From assembly GCA_902826885.1 (NCBI GenBank), contig CADEGL010000007.1, positions 10,588 to 74,587 of the forward strand: a DNA stretch of 64,000 nucleotides. The letters are read 5' to 3'. Origin of the DNA: an uncultured Alphaproteobacteria bacterium. Its GTDB lineage: Bacteria; Pseudomonadota; Alphaproteobacteria; CADEGL01. This document shows positions 19,993 through 50,614 of the stretch, one piece after another. A model generated the notes under the pieces. That model was not told the DNA's origin, searched no databases, and worked only from the letters and a program-made list of their open reading frames with translations. The first letter of the stretch is position 1, and every line of letters begins with the position of its first letter. A program made the position numbers and the translations under genes.

Positions 19993-20018
19993 GCGCGTTG
20001 GTACGCCGGGCGGCGCTT

Positions 20019-20537
20019 TCAAGCCTCCGACGCGCCCTTGCGTGAACCGGTTGCCGAAGCGGCCGCTTCTTTCAGGCTCTCGGCATATTGGGCGCGGAAA
20101 TAATCGCGCATCTTGCGCGGGTTGAAGTTCAGCAGCGTACCGCCGGATTCGAAGTGCGAGATGCAAACCTTGCCGACCGCATAGGTGATCGCCGCGGCCA
20201 CGCCCGGCACGGCGGCAACCGCGATCACCGGCCCCAGCACGGGAATGGCGCGAAAGCTGCTGAGCGCGACCATCTTGCCGAGGGTCACGCTTCCCAAGCT
20301 TCCGATCAGCGACAGGGCGATGCCCTTGGCCATATCCTTGCCGTAAGGCTGGCCGTAATGATCGGCCAGTTCCTTGATCAGCTTGACCTCGACCGCGGTG
20401 ATGGCCGCCAACTCGAGGAGGGGAACGGGGATCACCCCGGCGCCAGCGGACCACAACATGTTACGGCGGACGATTTCCATCGCCTCCGCAACCCTGGGCT
20501 CGACTTCAAGGTCATGAGCGAATGCCTGATCTGCCAT
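20019..20537 (-). CDS. DUF697/YcjF-like domain protein
   Basis: The region MLWSAGAGVIPVPLLELAAITAVEVKLIKELADHYG fits DUF697. A GAGGG RBS precedes ATG 20537. Confidence 0.45.
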   Translation of the reverse strand: MADQAFAHDLEVEPRVAEAMEIVRRNMLWSAGAGVIPVPLLELAAITAVEVKLIKELADHYGQPYGKDMAKGIALSLIGSLGSVTLGKMVALSSFRAIPVLGPVIAVAAVPGVAAAITYAVGKVCISHFESGGTLLNFNPRKMRDYFRAQYAESLKEAAASATGSRKGASEA

Positions 20538-20727
20538 GGCGGCCCTCAATTTTCGCGGTAAGACGTCTTAAACAGGATGATCCCAAACGATAGACATGAC
20601 AATGCTGAAGGTCCGGCCCGGAAACCACGCCTTCGGCATACACCCAGTCTGGCCGATCTTTCCATCCGGCATCGACTGGCTTGTTCGCGGTCTTGGCCCG
20701 CGGGTCCGCGCGGATGAGGCGCACCCG

Positions 20728-21363
20728 CTATTTGAGCGCCTCGACAACCTTCGGATCATTGAGAAGTTTAGCCAGCGATTCCTGGGCCAATGCCTTCACC
20801 TTCGGCGCCATATCCGACTCCGGCGTGAATGTGACGAATCGATTGGAAATGGCCTGGCGGTCCCGCACCGTATTCGTTGCCAACAGCGCGCCGGACGCGT
20901 CGTAAACATCCGCGATGAGGCCAACATCCGCGGAAGCATTGACATACATTTCCGTTTTCCAGTCCGTGATCGTGACCAGCAGCGAGCGGGGCGCTTTAAC
21001 ATCCTGCAGAAGCTTGATCGCCTGATCGCGCGAATCCGTGTACGGAATCGTCACGGTCGTCACCTTGATCTTTTTGGCTTCCAGGGCGCTCGAGATCGCG
21101 GTGGCGAAATCATCCGCCAAAGGGCGCCCTGATTGGGTGTGAATCCCATAAGGGATGCCCACGCCCGCTCGCGCGAGACCGACAAACTCGGGGCTTTTGT
21201 CACCGCTCGTCACATAGGGCCGCTGATCCTGCACGCCGAGCGCCACTTGTTTCTCGGTCGCCGCGTCCAAGTTCAAGGTTTGGTTTTGAAAATCATATTT
21301 CTGGCCGACAACGCATGCGCTGACCATCAGCGCCATCGCCGTAGAAAACAGCACTTTCAGCAT
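20728..21363 (-). CDS. Lipoprotein, hypothetical (YajG-like?); lower GC
   Basis: It has a lipobox (MVSAC) and a GGGGGA RBS. GC is ~52% against a ~67% background. Confidence 0.55.
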   Translation of the reverse strand: MLKVLFSTAMALMVSACVVGQKYDFQNQTLNLDAATEKQVALGVQDQRPYVTSGDKSPEFVGLARAGVGIPYGIHTQSGRPLADDFATAISSALEAKKIKVTTVTIPYTDSRDQAIKLLQDVKAPRSLLVTITDWKTEMYVNASADVGLIADVYDASGALLATNTVRDRQAISNRFVTFTPESDMAPKVKALAQESLAKLLNDPKVVEALK

Positions 21364-21400
21364 TGTTCATCCCCCGAGTTGATCGCTCAGCTTGCCGACA

Positions 21401-22144
21401 CTAAGTCGATTTCATCGCGACCGCATTGATAATGGTCCGTTCGTATTTTTCGGACAGCTTGAGGCCGAATGATTCCAAAATGCGCCAGTTCGGGTGGCTC
21501 CACCACATGTACGGAAGCGAGATGTGAGAATCCGAGAGCGTGAAACCCGCTGCGCGCACCAGCGCTACATATTCGTCCGCCGTTTTCTGGACCTCCATGG
21601 GATGGCGGAAAAACCCGCGGATTAACCAACTGTCGATATACGCTTTGGTCGATTCGGCAAGAAGAAGGCATCCCCCTGGCTTCAGCACCCGCAAGAATTC
21701 TCGCAGCGCTCTGTCCTGGTCCACGATGTGATGAAGACTTTGGTGGCAAAACACCATGTCTACGCTTTCATCGCACAAGCCGGTATGCGATGCGGTGGCC
21801 ACGACGATCTCGGCCGAACAGGGCGCCGCGACGGCCGCCTTCGCCGCCCACGCCGGCGCGCGCGGATCTGCATCCAGTCCGATGATCCGCTCCGCCGAGA
21901 ACCGTTTGGCCAAGTAGGCGAACGCGCCGCCATGGCCGCATCCCACGTCGAGGATGACAGGGAAGCGTTTGCCCAGCGGCAAGAGCCTGCGAAGATCGCG
22001 GATCGCGCGACGAACCACGAACTCCCGCCATATCCGCGTACCCAAGAACCAACAGCCGAAGCGGCTGTCGGGCACGAAGGGCGCCGGTGCCGGCGCCGTC
22101 GCGGTTCGGACGCTCGCTCGGTCATTCCATGCAGAAGCGGTCAT
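21401..22144 (-). CDS. Class I SAM-dependent methyltransferase
   Basis: It has motif I (ILDVGCGHGG) and a post-I acidic residue (IIGLDAD). Confidence 0.75.
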   Translation of the reverse strand: MTASAWNDRASVRTATAPAPAPFVPDSRFGCWFLGTRIWREFVVRRAIRDLRRLLPLGKRFPVILDVGCGHGGAFAYLAKRFSAERIIGLDADPRAPAWAAKAAVAAPCSAEIVVATASHTGLCDESVDMVFCHQSLHHIVDQDRALREFLRVLKPGGCLLLAESTKAYIDSWLIRGFFRHPMEVQKTADEYVALVRAAGFTLSDSHISLPYMWWSHPNWRILESFGLKLSEKYERTIINAVAMKST

Positions 22145-22158
22145 CGGAAACGAATCGA

Positions 22159-22569
22159 TCAGCTGCGTTCCAGATTGGCCTGGATCGTATCAACCAGATC
22201 GCGCGTCCATTTGTTATAGAACGGGTGAATTATGCCCGTGCCGGCATTGGGCTGATATTTCATGTTGATGCTTCCGGCATAGACGACGCTGAAGTTCTCC
22301 TTTGAATACGTGATGTTGACGATCACGGTGTGCTTGTTGCGTACAACCAAGGTTGCGGTCACCGAATTTTCGGTGGGGCCCTTGGTGATCGTCCAGCTGT
22401 TCATGGCGGCGGCCGTCACGATCGCTTGCTTGACCTGATCGATCGTGAGTGGCTTCGCGACGAGTTGATTCTCGTAATTGATGATCGGCACGGCCTCGCG
22501 CGCTTGCGCGGCCGTGGTCAGGAAAACGGACACAATCAGGATCGTCAGGCTTCGCAACGCGACTTTCAC
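22159..22569 (-). CDS. Secreted hypothetical protein; low GC (~48%)
   Basis: It has a signal peptide (ILIVSVFLTTAAQA) and an AAGGAG RBS. Its GTG start overlaps the PPTase stop (GTGA). Confidence 0.55.
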   Translation of the reverse strand: MKVALRSLTILIVSVFLTTAAQAREAVPIINYENQLVAKPLTIDQVKQAIVTAAAMNSWTITKGPTENSVTATLVVRNKHTVIVNITYSKENFSVVYAGSINMKYQPNAGTGIIHPFYNKWTRDLVDTIQANLERS

Positions 22570-23210
22570 GTTTGTTCTCCTTTGCGTTCGATCATGGCGT
22601 CTTCCGCGCCGTCTGCATCTGTCACGGTGATGTGCAGATTGCGTACAGCCTCGGCAATTTGCGTAGTTTCCAGGCCTAGGATGGCGACCGATAAAAAAAC
22701 TCCGGGGTGGGGGACATGGTGATGAAGAAGCAGCGTCTCGCCGCCGAAGACCGTCGGCCAGGTACCTTCGCGCGGCCCGAGATGCGCCCGATCCGTGCCA
22801 TCGGCCACATGATCCAAGCCTCTTCCGTGGGCCTTGGCCAGCGCCTCGCGCAACGTCCAGATGCGGTAGAACTCATGTTCCGTCGTAGACCGCGCGATTT
22901 CCCGCGGCCCAAATGCCGCGTGGGCAATGCCGCGCCAATCGCGTCCCGGCCGCGCCACCTCCACATCCACGCCGATCGTCCCTGCCGTGCTCATCGCGCA
23001 GGCGAACCAATCACGGCTGTGCGAGAGGGAAATGGACGGTCCCGGCTCATCACCCTGAAACGCCATCGGTTGTCCAGACGGTAAATGCGCAATTCCCCAC
23101 GCGCCACGCGCCGTACCGGCAAGTTCGGCAAGTATTTTGCTTGCCATAGTCTTGGTTCGGCCGGTCGACCAAAAATGACCAGCCAGGGGTGGAAACCCTC
23201 CCTCTCTCAT
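22566..23210 (-). CDS. 4'-phosphopantetheinyl transferase (Sfp/EntD-type)
   Basis: It has PPTase motifs (ISLSHSRDWFACAMS, GVDVE, WTLREALAKAHG). The start is uncertain between 23210 and 23147. Confidence 0.7.
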   Translation of the reverse strand: MREGGFPPLAGHFWSTGRTKTMASKILAELAGTARGAWGIAHLPSGQPMAFQGDEPGPSISLSHSRDWFACAMSTAGTIGVDVEVARPGRDWRGIAHAAFGPREIARSTTEHEFYRIWTLREALAKAHGRGLDHVADGTDRAHLGPREGTWPTVFGGETLLLHHHVPHPGVFLSVAILGLETTQIAEAVRNLHITVTDADGAEDAMIERKGEQT

Positions 23211-23439
23211 AGTAAGTAGATTTACCTTGTACACTGAATGCGCAATGACAGTGGAAATCACAGGGGTTGGCCCGCGATATCTTTTGCAGGTTGAATCTAC
23301 TAGAACTGTTTCGCGTACGGGAAGACAGATATTACTACCGAATAGCATTGTCGATTCGGGGGAACGACAATCCTAATGCTTTGTCATTCGAAGATATTTC
23401 TTTCAAAGACTTTCCATTTTTCTCGATTTGGGGCGCGTT
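23211..23439. promoter_or_regulatory. AT-rich divergent promoter region between the PPTase operon (-) and the APE-like operon (+)
   Basis: This 229-bp region is ~45% GC. It contains the inverted repeat CCGAAT-N10-ATTCGG (23338-23359) and a related TTGTC(G/A)ATTCG half-site downstream. Confidence 0.35.
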
Positions 23440-24165
23440 ATGACACGCCTTAATCCCATTGCGGTGGCCCAGTGGGATGCGTGGTCACCCGGCCGCGAGA
23501 GCCGCGCAGCGTGGTCTGCTTGGGCCGGCGCTCCGGCATCAGGCCAGGATGGCCCGCCACCTTCGGCGCCAGCCGCATTGCGCCGCCGCGTCACACCCCT
23601 CGGGCAAAAGACGCTGGCCAGCGCCTTAGCCTGCGGAACCGCGGCGAATGGACATTATGTGTTCGCATCGCGGCACGGAGAGTACGACCGCACCGTTTCA
23701 ATCTTCGAAGCGCTGGCGTCCGGCGAGCAGCCTTCACCCGCCGAATTCAGCATGTCGGTCCATCATTCGCTGGCTGGATTGCTATCGGTCCATGCCGGCA
23801 ACCGTGGCGTCCACACCGCCGTCGCGGCGGGCGCCGACAGCTTCGGCTTTGGTTTTCTCGAGGCCGTTTCGCTTGTATCCGAGCGCCCGGCGGACCCCGT
23901 GCTCTTCGTCTATTACGACGAACCTTTGCCCTCGCCGTACGAGCGGTTTCGGGAAGGCGGCGAAACGTTGCCGTTGGTGCTGGCCTTGGAGCTTCGCAAA
24001 CCGTCGGAAGACGACCGCGCAATCACCTTCACGGCCACGCCGGCCGAGAACAAAACGCCATCACCGAGCGCGGCCGAAGATTTCCTTCATTTCTATCTCT
24101 CCGGGGCACCGCAAGCGGCCTCGGATGGCCAGCGCATGCACTGGCGGTGGCGGCGCGATGCATAA
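23440..24165 (+). CDS. Ketosynthase-like chain-length-factor protein (ApeC-like)
   Basis: It matches the KS N-terminal-domain-like small proteins found at the head of aryl-polyene clusters. A GGGG RBS is present. Confidence 0.6.
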   Translation: MTRLNPIAVAQWDAWSPGRESRAAWSAWAGAPASGQDGPPPSAPAALRRRVTPLGQKTLASALACGTAANGHYVFASRHGEYDRTVSIFEALASGEQPSPAEFSMSVHHSLAGLLSVHAGNRGVHTAVAAGADSFGFGFLEAVSLVSERPADPVLFVYYDEPLPSPYERFREGGETLPLVLALELRKPSEDDRAITFTATPAENKTPSPSAAEDFLHFYLSGAPQAASDGQRMHWRWRRDA

Positions 24166-37100: not shown

Positions 37101-37187
37101 TGGTGCCCCTGGCCGGACTCGAACCAGCACGATGTCGCCACCAACAGATTTTGAGTCTGCCGCGTCTACCAATTCCGCCACAGGGGC
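37101..37187 (-). tRNA. tRNA-Leu (anticodon CAA), class II with a long variable arm
   Basis: Manual fold gives a perfect 7-bp acceptor stem GCCCCTG/CAGGGGC, a GTTCGAGTC T-loop, the anticodon loop CTCAAAA and an encoded CCA. Confidence 0.85.
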
Positions 37188-47049: not shown

Positions 47050-47880
47050 TCAAGGCAGGGTAATGAAGACTGCGGCCAAACCCGGTAGCCCAGCCAGCGT
47101 GCCAATGACGAAAGCGCGCAGCCAGCGCAGCCGCCCCGTCGCCGGCCGGCGCCACACCAGATCGGCCGCGAAGGGCAACAGCAGGAGAAGGAACGACAAG
47201 CGCGGCAGCGCGGCATGCAGCCCGATGGTGACCATGAGCCCGAGCCATGCTCCGCCGCCGGTCAGCACGGCCGCCAGGGTGAACGGCCGGGGCAGACGAC
47301 CGAACGACACGGCGGCGAAAGCCAGACACGCCGCCCCAGCCGCCGCGAAAGGCGCCACCGTGGTCGTGATGCCCCAGGCCAACGCGGTGATCGACGCGAA
47401 GCCGCAGGATGCGGCCAGCATGAGCGGCGCATCGGCCTCGCGGCCGCGCGCCCGATCGAGGCGAAACAGCACGGCGACGCCCGCAACGCAAAGCGCCACG
47501 AGAAGCAGCGGATCTTCCGCGCGCGCGATCGACAGGCGCTGCCCCGCCACGACGGCAACCACGGCGAACGGCCAGAGCACGAGCGCGCACCGGCGGACAG
47601 CGGCGCCCGCGCGGCCGAAATCGAGCACAGCGCCCGCGGCGCCGCCGGCGAGCGCCAGGTAGAAGGTCCGGAAATCCGGCGGTCCCGGCGGCGGAAGCCA
47701 GACGAAAGTGGTCAGTTTCTGCACGAAGAACAGCGCGAGCGGCAACGCCAGGCCGGCCATGCGCCCGAGCCCGGCCGCCCGTAGCGCGATGACGAACGCC
47801 AGCGTGATGAAGAACGGATAGACCAGCCCCGCCGCCACATGACCGCCGCCCAAAGTGGAAAACAATAAGGTCAGACGTAT
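47050..47880 (-). CDS. Polytopic membrane protein, hypothetical
   Basis: It is strongly hydrophobic with multiple helices. The start is uncertain. The Arg-rich N-terminal part of the 343-aa ORF is an artefact, as is the competing ORF 46904-47923. Confidence 0.4.
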   Translation of the reverse strand: MRLTLLFSTLGGGHVAAGLVYPFFITLAFVIALRAAGLGRMAGLALPLALFFVQKLTTFVWLPPPGPPDFRTFYLALAGGAAGAVLDFGRAGAAVRRCALVLWPFAVVAVVAGQRLSIARAEDPLLLVALCVAGVAVLFRLDRARGREADAPLMLAASCGFASITALAWGITTTVAPFAAAGAACLAFAAVSFGRLPRPFTLAAVLTGGGAWLGLMVTIGLHAALPRLSFLLLLLPFAADLVWRRPATGRLRWLRAFVIGTLAGLPGLAAVFITLP

Positions 47881-47954
47881 CTCCCGCGGTCGGCTTCCTG
47901 GCCCGTGCGGCCTCGGATAACATGCCCTCCTGCCTTCCACGAGCGAAGAGTCCG

Positions 47955-49631
47955 ATGTCCAGCCTCGCCGCTTCCGCCGCGCCGTCCCCGGATGCCGTGA
48001 TGGCGGATCTCCTGCCCGCGTGCGCCGACGCGCTCGGCGCCGTCGATCACTATGTCGCGGCGGCACGCGACGCCTTGGCACGCGTCACGGGCGACGGAAA
48101 GGGCGACGTCTTCGAACGCCACCAATACGCCGCGCACGGATTCGCATGGGCGGCCACCTACGCGGCCGCCCTGCGCGAGTTGCTGGCCTGGGCGAAGCGT
48201 CTTGAGGAGGCGCGCACGCTGGGCGAGACCGAAGCCCTGATCCTACAGATCGGCTTCGGCGAGTATTTGGCGCAACTGAAGGGGGGCATTCCGCTAAGCC
48301 AGGGCGAGGTGGTGCGTGCCTCCGATCTGGGCCTCGACGAACGGGCGCTCGCGCCCCTGTATGCGGGCGCGGTCGAAACGCTGATCGCGCGCGGCACCGC
48401 GCATGGCGCGCGCATGCGCCTGGCCGCCCTCATCGCGGATGGAAATTTCGGCGATGACGGGCTGTCGGACGAGACGCTCGTCATGGTGCGCGATCAGTTC
48501 CGCCGCTTCGCCGACGAGCAGGTCGTCCCCCATGCCCATGGCTGGCACGTGCGCGACGAGCTGATCCCGCTCGCGGTGCTGGAAAAGATGGGCGAGCTGG
48601 GCGTGTTCGGCCTGACCGTGCCGCAGGAGCTGGGCGGCCTCGGCCTCGGTAAGATCGCCATGTGCGTGGTGACCGAGGAGTTAGCGCGCGCCTATATCGG
48701 CGTCGGCTCGCTGGGCACGCGCTCGGAGATCGCGGCCGAGCTGCTCGTCGCTTCGGGCACGCCGGACCAGCGCCAGCGCTGGCTGCCCGGCATCGTCGCG
48801 GGCGCCACCATCCCGACCGCCGTCTTCACCGAACCCAACACGGGCTCGGACTTGGCCAGCCTGCGCACCCGGGCGGAGCGCGCGGGCGACGCCTATCGCG
48901 TCACCGGCAACAAGACCTGGATCACCCACGCCGCGCGCGCCGACCTGATGACGCTCCTGGTCCGCACGGACCCGAAGGAGCCGGGCTACAAAGGCCTTTC
49001 CATGTTTCTGGCCGCCAAGCCGCGCGGCACGGCGGACAATCCCTTCCCCGCGAACGGCATGTCGGGCGGCGAGATCCGCGTGCTGGGCTATCGCGGCATG
49101 AAGGAATACGACATCGCCTTCGACGGCTTCGAGGTGCCCGCGCGCGACCTGTTGGGCGGCGTCGAGGGCCAGGGCTTCAAGCAGCTCATGGCCACGTTCG
49201 AATCGGCGCGGGTGCAGACCGCCGCGCGCGCCGTGGGCGTGGCGCGCAACGCGATGGAGCTGGCGCTGGACTATGCGCGCACGCGCGTCCAGTTCGGCCG
49301 GCCCATCGCGAACTTCCCGCGCGTGGCCGGCAAGATCGCCTGGATGGCGGTCGAAACCATGGTCGCGCGGCAGCTGACCCATTTCGCCGCGCGCGAGAAG
49401 GACTCTGGCCGCCGCTGCGACATCGAGGCCGGCATGGCCAAGCTTTTGGCCGCGCGCGTCGCATGGGCCAACGCCGACAACGCCGTCCAGGTCCATGGCG
49501 GCAACGGCTATGCCGTCGAGTTTCCCGTCAGCCGCGTGTTGTGCGACGCACGCATCCTCAACATCTTCGAGGGCACGGCCGAGATCCAGGCCACCGTCAT
49601 CGCGCGCGGTCTTTTGGCGCGACGAAATTGA
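47955..49631 (+). CDS. Acyl-CoA dehydrogenase family protein (long form)
   Basis: It has all three ACAD domains, GGNGYAVEFPVSRVLCDARILNIFEGTAEIQ and a catalytic Glu region. Confidence 0.8.
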   Translation: MSSLAASAAPSPDAVMADLLPACADALGAVDHYVAAARDALARVTGDGKGDVFERHQYAAHGFAWAATYAAALRELLAWAKRLEEARTLGETEALILQIGFGEYLAQLKGGIPLSQGEVVRASDLGLDERALAPLYAGAVETLIARGTAHGARMRLAALIADGNFGDDGLSDETLVMVRDQFRRFADEQVVPHAHGWHVRDELIPLAVLEKMGELGVFGLTVPQELGGLGLGKIAMCVVTEELARAYIGVGSLGTRSEIAAELLVASGTPDQRQRWLPGIVAGATIPTAVFTEPNTGSDLASLRTRAERAGDAYRVTGNKTWITHAARADLMTLLVRTDPKEPGYKGLSMFLAAKPRGTADNPFPANGMSGGEIRVLGYRGMKEYDIAFDGFEVPARDLLGGVEGQGFKQLMATFESARVQTAARAVGVARNAMELALDYARTRVQFGRPIANFPRVAGKIAWMAVETMVARQLTHFAAREKDSGRRCDIEAGMAKLLAARVAWANADNAVQVHGGNGYAVEFPVSRVLCDARILNIFEGTAEIQATVIARGLLARRN

Positions 49632-49635
49632 GCAA

Positions 49636-50397
49636 ATGGAAGATCCCGCATATACAGACAGCACCGTTTTATTTGCTGATGTATTGGGCTTCCGCGAGTT
49701 TGTCCAAAGATCGAAATCAGACCCACGGCTTATTAAAAGGTGGGCGGATTCCCTTAATAGCTTTCGTCAAAGTTCCTTAAATCCGGAAAGAGCCCCCGGC
49801 TATTGCCTCTCAACTTTTTCGGACTCGCTCTGTGCGTCCACGCCGTTTTCGGCCTCACATCTAGGCAGCTTCGTTGCCGGAATATCGTGCATCTCCATTT
49901 CCTTATTTATGTTAGGCCTGCCATTGCGAGGCGCTGTGGTTCGAGGAGCGCTCTATCATCCAAGTAGTGGTGTAGTGTTAGGACCAGCCCTCGTTCAGGC
50001 TTACGAGCTTGAGCAAACCGCCGTATATCCCAGGATATTGCTTCATCCCGAGTTACCTCAGATTTCCGACCCAGAAATTCAGGAGCTTGAGCTGACTTTT
50101 GAAGACTTTGACGGATGGCAAATCGTGAACTTTCTTGGCCCATTTCCAATTGTCTGCGGAAGCATATTTACCAACGAACCACCCGAAAAAATTGCCAAGG
50201 AAATTCGCGTGCGAATTGATGAGGCTGCCAATATGCCGCTGGAGCCGCGCATAAAGATGAAATACCAGTGGCTGCAAAAGTATTTTGATAGAGTTAATAG
50301 CCCCACCACGGACTATTCAAAGCCGCTGTCATTGGTCAGAAAGTCTATGGATGCGGCTAGAGTTGCCGCATCAGAAAAGTCGAACGCACAAAAATAA
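49636..50397 (+). CDS. Low-GC hypothetical protein with a divergent class III nucleotidyl-cyclase homology domain (CHD) plus an unknown ~110-aa C-terminal domain
   Basis: VLFADVLGF matches the FxDxxGFT metal-Asp motif. TFSDSLCAS matches the tiGDaymA second metal Asp. LRGAVVRGALYH...GVVLGPALVQAYELEQ matches the RiGihtG...GdtVNlAsRlE region. GC is ~48% against a 67% background. Confidence 0.5.
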   Translation: MEDPAYTDSTVLFADVLGFREFVQRSKSDPRLIKRWADSLNSFRQSSLNPERAPGYCLSTFSDSLCASTPFSASHLGSFVAGISCISISLFMLGLPLRGAVVRGALYHPSSGVVLGPALVQAYELEQTAVYPRILLHPELPQISDPEIQELELTFEDFDGWQIVNFLGPFPIVCGSIFTNEPPEKIAKEIRVRIDEAANMPLEPRIKMKYQWLQKYFDRVNSPTTDYSKPLSLVRKSMDAARVAASEKSNAQK

Positions 50398-50407
50398 AGC
50401 GATCACT

Positions 50408-50614
50408 ATGCAAACCCTGGCCGCCGTCTTTCCCTATCTGATCGGTTTCATGATGGCCGTCGTGCTGGCCATCCTGTTGACCGGCGTCGTCGGAATGCTG
50501 AGAGGGACCGAGTTCAACAAGCGCAACGGCAACAAGCTCATGCGCCTGCGCGTCGCGGCCCAGGCGGTGACCATCGTTCTGTTCGCGATCTACATGCTGT
50601 TCATCGACAAGTGA
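50408..50614 (+). CDS. Twin-transmembrane-helix small protein (HIG1 domain family)
   Basis: It is 68 aa with two transmembrane helices, native GC and a conserved (R/K)xNGNKLMRLRV motif. Confidence 0.7.
   Translation: MQTLAAVFPYLIGFMMAVVLAILLTGVVGMLRGTEFNKRNGNKLMRLRVAAQAVTIVLFAIYMLFIDK

Follow-up and report, generated by a model that had tools for sequence, protein, structure and literature searches.

What does a single gene of deviant composition do in the middle of a housekeeping operon? The question is raised by an open reading frame (ORF) on contig CADEGL010000007.1 of an uncultured Alphaproteobacteria bacterium, in the 64-kb stretch of DNA that was analysed as a whole and is called the window hereafter. 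The ORF (49636-50397, + strand; ATG at 49636, stop TAA at 50395-50397) codes for a protein of 253 residues and lies between the genes of an acyl-CoA dehydrogenase (ACAD) and of a small HIG1 protein. Our analysis suggests that the inserted gene encodes a standalone toxin or abortive-infection effector of the PanT type housed in this operon, a reading to which we give a probability of roughly 0.6.

The left neighbour is a 569-residue ACAD with the N, M and C Acyl-CoA_dh domains of Pfam. Its stop codon TGA (49629-49631) is followed by four nucleotides (GCAA) and then by the ATG at 49636. At the other end, the TAA is separated by ten nucleotides from the ATG at 50408 of a 68-residue HIG_1_N protein (PF04588, E 1e-8), after which come the genes for a PduO-type cobalamin adenosyltransferase, EtfB, EtfA and a 3-hydroxyacyl-CoA dehydrogenase (Hbd). 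An alternative mechanical ORF with its start at 49495 overlaps the ACAD gene, and the ATG at 49636 was preferred because the family homology and the break in GC content (guanine plus cytosine) both begin there. The GC content of the ORF is 48.2% versus 65.7% for the whole window, which is the minimum of all 762-nt segments across the 64 kb (z = -5.4). At third codon positions (GC3) the value is 48.4%, versus 88% for ACAD, 88% for HIG1, 86% for PduO and 90-92% for the Etf and Hbd genes. These data are in agreement with a preliminary description of the locus, made from the DNA letters, as regards the position and length of the ORF, its 4-nt and 10-nt spacers, its GC content of about 48% and the native GC content of the HIG1 gene.

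A search with the ACAD returned four full-length proteins 92-95% identical to it and a partial one 96% identical, all from alphaproteobacterial metagenome-assembled genomes. The contigs of three relatives (L110 to L112; ACAD 94-96% identical) match the gene order of the window exactly, the shared order being HhH-GPD, DUF4743, ACT_12, a 262-residue protein, ACAD, HIG1, PduO, EtfB, EtfA and Hbd. In all three the site is empty, the ACAD-HIG1 gap measuring only 11-12 nt in the form TAG AAAGCCCGAAT ATG, and the HIG1 gene is present. The lineages of GCA_050247585.1 and GCA_026400755.1 are among the carriers of the empty site. DNA alignments with these relatives revealed homology up to the last ACAD codon and again from the HIG1 start. 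The left junction (49629-49635, + strand) consists of the ACAD stop TGA, which is TAG in the relatives, and the GCAA spacer; the right junction (50398-50407, + strand) is the 10-nt spacer AGCGATCACT before the HIG1 ATG, where the homology of the relatives resumes. The native spacer TAG AAAGCCCGAAT ATG (L110:4675-4690) corresponds in the window to TGA GCAA, the ORF, and TAA AGCGATCACT ATG. Since homology stops at the last ACAD codon and restarts at HIG1, the insert can be no longer than about 779 nt and is made up almost entirely of the ORF. An AAAGC microhomology at the right edge of the insert is possible only.

None of 80 loci from further afield (Azospirillum, Rhodospirillales and others), whose ACAD is 58-70% identical, has the gene either, and in many of them ACAD, HIG1, PduO and the Etf genes are contiguous. 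Orthologs of native GC content, the presence of which in all relatives with a housekeeping function the preliminary description had named among the observations that would refute its reading, were seen neither in the three close loci nor in the 80 distant ones. Because the ORF is an outlier in GC and GC3 and three relatives with a close ACAD carry an empty site of 11-12 nt, it is a recent horizontal single-gene insertion of about 770 nt between ACAD and HIG1; horizontal acquisition had been proposed before. No integrase or insertion sequence (IS) element is adjacent to the insert, and no flanking repeats or target-site duplication were found at the junctions; the matches that could be detected, all of them short, imperfect and GC-rich, fall within the coding regions on either side. 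There is no tRNA gene near the insert; the sole one in the window, tRNA-Leu(CAA) at 37101-37187 (- strand), is unconnected with the insertion. The locus shows that a gene can enter an 11-nt spacer with no visible signature of mobility. No promoter-like or terminator-like site was found on the + strand within the insert, the next terminator-like site being located after PduO, and for this reason the ORF is most likely co-transcribed with the ACAD-HIG1 operon.

The product of the ORF gave no match to Pfam, NCBIfam or PADLOC, even at E<=10, and none in a sequence search of the PDB. A word-indexed search yielded only 22 homologs, none of them more than 36% identical and every one annotated as 'hypothetical'; the window protein is an unusually divergent member of its family, the best database relative being 33-36% identical. 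When a family profile built from the 22 homologs was run against 1.84 billion cluster representatives (clusters at 50% identity), 15,244 of these were retrieved at E<=1e-3, and the stricter limit of E<=1e-30 left 3,140. Family members mostly have 240-280 residues and were matched over their full length. They are distributed over Proteobacteria, Bacillus and Acinetobacter plasmids and temperate phages, and the window protein itself matches phrog_23933 over its full length (E 2e-23). Neither Pfam, NCBIfam nor PADLOC (2023) holds a model for this family of about 15,000 clusters. Variant architectures also occur (P0023, P0044, P0089, P0166 and P0026): some members are tandem duplications of the whole module (475-531 residues), and in P0166 the module is fused to about 350 residues of TPR_12/TPR_10 repeats, an arrangement of the effector-sensor type. 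A sizeable subgroup of about 330-350 residues has a conserved N-terminal extension of about 85 residues.

Residue conservation was determined from 113 diverse members, which share 20-31% identity with the window protein and align with a mean column identity of 19%. In spite of this divergence, D15, G18, S62, D63, R98, G99, G104, G116, P132, R133 and K209 are invariant (113/113), while Y6, L17, F61, S68, H108, P117, A118, A122, E126, A129, D157, D159 and W212 are conserved in at least 90% of the members. The window protein keeps 11/11 of the former and 13/13 of the latter. It departs from the family at position 155, which is Phe instead of the Arg or Lys of most members. The FADVLGF, FSD and RxG motifs from which the preliminary description had recognised a cyclase accordingly contain invariant or near-invariant residues and are not chance resemblances.

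This degree of conservation also bears on the proposal that the gene is a functionless passenger, brought in by recent illegitimate recombination, neutral or slightly deleterious, and intact for want of time to decay. The full-length ORF with its complete set of invariant and near-invariant residues tells against it, as does the very clean insertion, the 4-nt and 10-nt spacers of which keep the operon compact and permit co-translation. In its favour, the composition is wholly unameliorated (GC3 48% versus 86-92%), the gene is absent from relatives with a 94-96% identical ACAD, neither a promoter nor an antitoxin or partner came with it, and the protein lacks the nearly conserved R9. Taking both sides together, we consider a passenger improbable.

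A predicted fold was then assigned to the protein. A structure search and an alignment of the catalytic residues, both suggested in the preliminary description, were carried out. The top 50 Foldseek matches of the model are all adenylate or guanylate cyclases (best E 1.3e-5, probability 1.00), and the beta-alpha-alpha-beta-beta-alpha-beta palm of the class III cyclase-homology domain (CHD) is present in residues 1 to about 165 (49636-50130, + strand) in the order beta1-alpha1-alpha2-beta2-beta3-alpha3-beta4/5-alpha4-beta6, with further strands. In fold comparison, the Pycsar cyclases gave values of 9.7-11, GGDEF proteins about 9-10, Cas10 8.7 and mCpol 8.4. The GGDEF diguanylate cyclases, the Cas10 palm and mCpol (Panoptes OptS, 9mnr) are clearly weaker matches than the CHD; neither a GG(D/E)EF or GGDD motif nor a partner of the 2TM-beta or CARF kind is present with the window protein. 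The support from PF00211 is sub-threshold: 11 of the 113 members match it at E<1, P0166, scored separately, reaches 19.3 bits for a cut-off of 21.9, and the window protein is below the Pfam gathering threshold, with no match at E<=10. When the family profile was compared with the PDB, chains of adenylate and guanylate cyclases were found at the equivalent motifs, YeerivaFiDILGF being aligned to YEEVTIYFSDIVGF of GC-C and RGgitvG..fGPAlveAYelE to RIGINIG..FGDAVNVAARLE of 3mr7, with GPAlveAYelE opposite GDAVNVAARLE. The model and the sub-threshold sequence support identify the N-terminal domain as a divergent fold of the class III cyclase-homology type, and in this the preliminary description was right.

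The motifs could be located on this fold. FADVLGF (49672-49692, + strand) forms the beta1 motif with the first metal aspartate, D15, and the invariant G18, and aligns to FSDIVGFT of GC-C and FADIVGFT of Rv1625c. The second metal aspartate, D63, is found in F61-S62-D63 (49816-49824, + strand), in which S62 and D63 are invariant, at the beta2-beta3 turn. D15 was placed by motif alignment and D63 by the position of its hairpin in the model; both are present in 113/113. The RxG strand and the alpha4 region (49927-50034, + strand), aligned by profile to 3mr7, comprise R98-G99, G104, H108, G116-P117-A118, E126 and P132-R133, the stretch GPALVQAYELE..YPR occupying 49981-50034. The base is specified in class III cyclases by Lys/Asp for ATP and by Glu/Cys for GTP; four residues before the second aspartate the family has T or S and not Lys, and the second base-specificity position is not confidently alignable. 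In class III cyclases, the half of the active site that carries the transition-state Asn and Arg is normally donated by a partner subunit. The corresponding positions in the window protein are V120 and E124, and the preliminary description had already remarked that NxxxR was not evident; among the 113 members, column 120 is V55/I37/N13 and column 124 is E41/K13/L10/D8/R6. From the alignment, the metal-binding half-site and the RxG arginine are strictly kept and the half that normally comes from the partner is not. With respect to the catalytic domains of class III adenylate and guanylate cyclases (CHD, PF00211; for example Rv1900c 1ybt, CyaB 3r5g, sGC 3uvj and mammalian adenylate cyclase C1/C2), the window protein differs by lacking the transition-state Asn/Arg and the conserved base-specifying Lys four residues before the second aspartate, by staying under the Pfam threshold and by carrying an additional helical module at the C-terminal end, in which a Lys is invariant. 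That it makes a cyclic nucleotide seems doubtful.

Such an incomplete active site could belong to a pseudo-cyclase, in which a non-catalytic CHD binds a nucleoside triphosphate (NTP), a protein or a nucleic acid and acts stoichiometrically, for instance on the transcription machinery, or serves as a nucleotide sensor. There is a precedent in the class III adenylate cyclase-like ATP-binding protein of Pseudomonas aeruginosa (6yii), and the nucleotide pools, which are unchanged with the toxin PanT discussed below, point the same way. The precedent is part of a large regulator, however, whereas the window protein strictly keeps the metal ligands and has a toxin as a relative. Moreover, the metal Asp pair, the RxG Arg, R133, K209, D157/D159 and H108 are invariant or nearly so in 113 divergent sequences, a pattern typical of an active site, and we consider a non-catalytic role unlikely.

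The rest of the protein, residues about 166-253 (50131-50394, + strand), is a family-specific helical extension with the invariant K209 and the near-invariant W212 in a KYxW motif (50260-50271); D157 and D159 stand on the hairpin that precedes it. The preliminary description, to which the last 110 residues or so resembled nothing familiar, had suggested that the gene may be a fusion of signal generator and effector, of the Pycsar-like or orphan signalling kind; in such a module the CHD would produce a cyclic pyrimidine or purine mononucleotide activating the C-terminal effector or receptor. This part of its proposal was not upheld. The alignment shows that the C-terminal module, with its invariant K209, recurs throughout the family and belongs to the protein proper; it is no appended domain. 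PanT shares the module, and PanT is a toxin in its own right, for which an antitoxin and not a signal is required. The module is soluble and helical, with no transmembrane segment, TIR or cyclic nucleoside monophosphate (cNMP)-binding fold and no fold match. Neither the protein nor its 113 relatives matched PycC or any other PADLOC model, and no cNMP-binding, transmembrane or TIR effector is fused or adjacent. The similarity to the Pycsar PycC proteins (7r65 cUMP synthase, 8jsz, 8jsf) lies at the level of the fold only; the PycC HMM match, the cNMP-activated effector gene or domain and the catalytic Asn/Arg pair are all missing in the window protein. The HIG1 protein was considered as a membrane effector partner and rejected, its gene being of native GC3 (88%) and present at the empty site, and the neighbours are housekeeping genes. 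A Pycsar-like system is, in our judgement, very improbable here.

A closer analogue was found among phages. In a tblastn search of phage genomes, six P2-like Burkholderia phages matched. The match in the Burkholderia prophage phi52237 is gp8 (YP_293707.1, 314 residues), encoded between the integrase and portal genes; only 3 nt separate it from the gene upstream, which codes for gp9, a SocA_Panacea protein (PF13274, E 8e-18). Kurata et al. (PNAS 2022, PMC8832971) described this gp9-gp8 pair as PanA-PanT(Bur. phage). PanT(Bur. phage) kills E. coli, and PanA neutralises it by forming a complex with it; the toxin is termed a "putative nucleotide cyclase", and HHpred assigns it to adenylate/guanylate cyclases at 97% (PMC8832971). 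It inhibits transcription most, then translation, then replication, independently of RelA, and RelA-dependent ppGpp is induced as a side effect (PMC8832971). The alignment (hhalign) of the family profile with PanT residues 42-295 gave a probability of 99.9% (E 2.5e-33), and its 240 columns take in the C-terminal module with the Lys. By this profile comparison, the window protein is a full-length homolog of PanT, and the product of the complete ORF very probably belongs, as a standalone member, to the PanT-type CHD family. The two proteins are homologous over nearly their whole length, with the same cyclase-like fold assignment, the same invariant D, SD, RG, GPA..E, PR and C-terminal K, and carriage on mobile DNA. 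They differ in that PanT has an additional N-terminal stretch of about 45 residues and is classified in PHROG 21097, versus 23933 for the window protein, and in that PanT is paired with an adjacent Panacea antitoxin (type II; PanA = Panacea/DUF4065), which the window gene lacks. No adjacent SocA_Panacea (PF13274) antitoxin was found, the neighbours being ACAD and HIG_1_N, both native and both present at the empty site, and phmmer detected no PanA homolog in the 64-kb window. A literature search found no follow-up work on the PanT toxin class. The functional analogy should shift from Pycsar to a Panacea-associated cyclase-like toxin.

The surroundings of the relatives were surveyed through 100 neighbour proteins from about 23 loci, a small sample with no statistical control. 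The family gene is mostly alone, in variable, mobile or defence-rich surroundings such as defence islands, prophages and plasmids, which agrees with the anti-phage context mentioned in the preliminary description. In an Oxalobacteraceae genome (L001) it adjoins McrBC, SMEK and an AAA_15 ATPase; in L004 it is near an integrase, AbiTii and Ymh; in L008 near GmrSD, SIR2 and WYL; and in L009 it is inside a prophage, on the strand opposite to that of the neighbouring genes. On an Agrobacterium plasmid it lies between AbiEii/PP2C/DUF6615 and PLD, AAA and UvrD genes, on S. meliloti pSymA it adjoins DUF4238 and IS66, and on a Thauera plasmid IS21; many Bacillus cereus and Acinetobacter plasmids carry it as well. 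The neighbours include GajA, PtuA-like ATPases, AbiLi, restriction-modification, integrase, terminase and transposase or IS genes. No recurring partner was found among the 100 proteins, no family being present more than three times, and the Panacea domain was not among the 25 most frequent Pfam families listed for these neighbours. Such contexts fit an autonomous effector on mobile DNA and are suggestive rather than conclusive.

At three of these loci, L001 (6144-7826) and the two metagenome contigs L002 and L003, a gene for a 560-residue AAA_15/AAA_21 (GajA/PtuA-like) ATPase is followed after 175 nt by the family gene, and the two may form a two-gene variant. A truncated AAA_23 ORF lies upstream of the family gene in L004.

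Taken together, the standalone PanT-type effector is the reading that we prefer, and a mechanism may be sketched for it. The gene, placed in the ACAD-HIG1 spacer with no flanking DNA of its own, would be read as part of the operon. Its product would bind Mg2+ and an NTP through D15, D63 and the RxG arginine R98, as in cyclases, and H108, R133, D157/D159 and K209, some of them contributed by the C-terminal extension, could stand in for the Asn and Arg of a partner subunit. A non-canonical nucleotidyl transfer would then generate a product, or modify a target, that arrests transcription and growth. Lone copies with no Panacea antitoxin might be kept inactive up to the arrival of a trigger such as phage infection, and would then behave as single-gene abortive-infection or exclusion effectors on mobile DNA. 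Extended to the whole standalone clade of the phrog_23933 type, this would make it a widespread single-gene abortive-infection system: a monomer with its active site completed by its own C-terminal module (K209) instead of a dimer partner, producing upon phage attack an unknown toxic nucleotide or nucleotidylated transcription machinery. We put this forward as a tentative proposal, with the odds against it.

Several observations weigh against the standalone effector. The transition-state Asn/Arg pair (NxxxR, alpha4) is absent. R9, an Arg in 94/113 members within a Y-E-x-R motif before beta1, is Ser in the window protein (49660-49662). By BLASTP, the window protein is only 28% identical to PanT, over residues 5-150 only (E 2e-14), and growth arrest upon expression is experimentally known for the phage PanT only (PMC8832971). 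Catalysis is unproven even for PanT, for which the search for a product of the enzyme gave none; ATP levels did not change and GTP fell only a little (PMC8832971). The defence role is drawn from context only, namely from the small, uncontrolled survey, and PADLOC (2023) holds no model of the family. Finally, a constitutive toxin with no antitoxin in a housekeeping operon is awkward unless the protein is latent or inactive. With these points taken into account, we hold it somewhat better than an even chance that the protein is an active toxin or defence effector.

Other features of the window were recorded. Homologs of the ACAD (47922-49631) are labelled '(2S)-methylsuccinyl-CoA dehydrogenase' by JGI, an enzyme of the ethylmalonyl-CoA pathway, and the order ACAD-HIG1-PduO-EtfBA-Hbd is kept in many Rhodospirillales-like genomes. 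Upstream of the ACAD gene and divergent from it, an Ala/Leu/Gly-rich, membrane-like ORF (47050-48081, - strand) has no Pfam match; a strong AT skew of +0.5 to +0.6 on the + strand extends over it, and in L110 and L111, two of the near relatives, this position is occupied by a 262-residue protein, also with no Pfam match. A second and milder low-GC stretch at 20000-24000 (58-61% versus 65.7%) contains a lipoprotein-like ORF (20728-21363), a methyltransferase-like ORF (21401-22144) and a further ORF (22566-23348), all on the - strand, and may be another acquired segment.

A relative of the window protein, PanT, has been shown to be a toxin, hence this is not a new kind of system. It is a standalone variant of that toxin with no antitoxin, drawn from the uncharacterised and far larger branch of the family and observed as the clean gain of a single gene. 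The locus constitutes a natural experiment, in which a conserved operon has gained one gene and close relatives with the empty site serve as controls; the chemistry of the family is testable. Should the standalone form prove to be an active effector, bacterial immunity and toxin biology would gain a new enzymatic branch of the cyclase fold.
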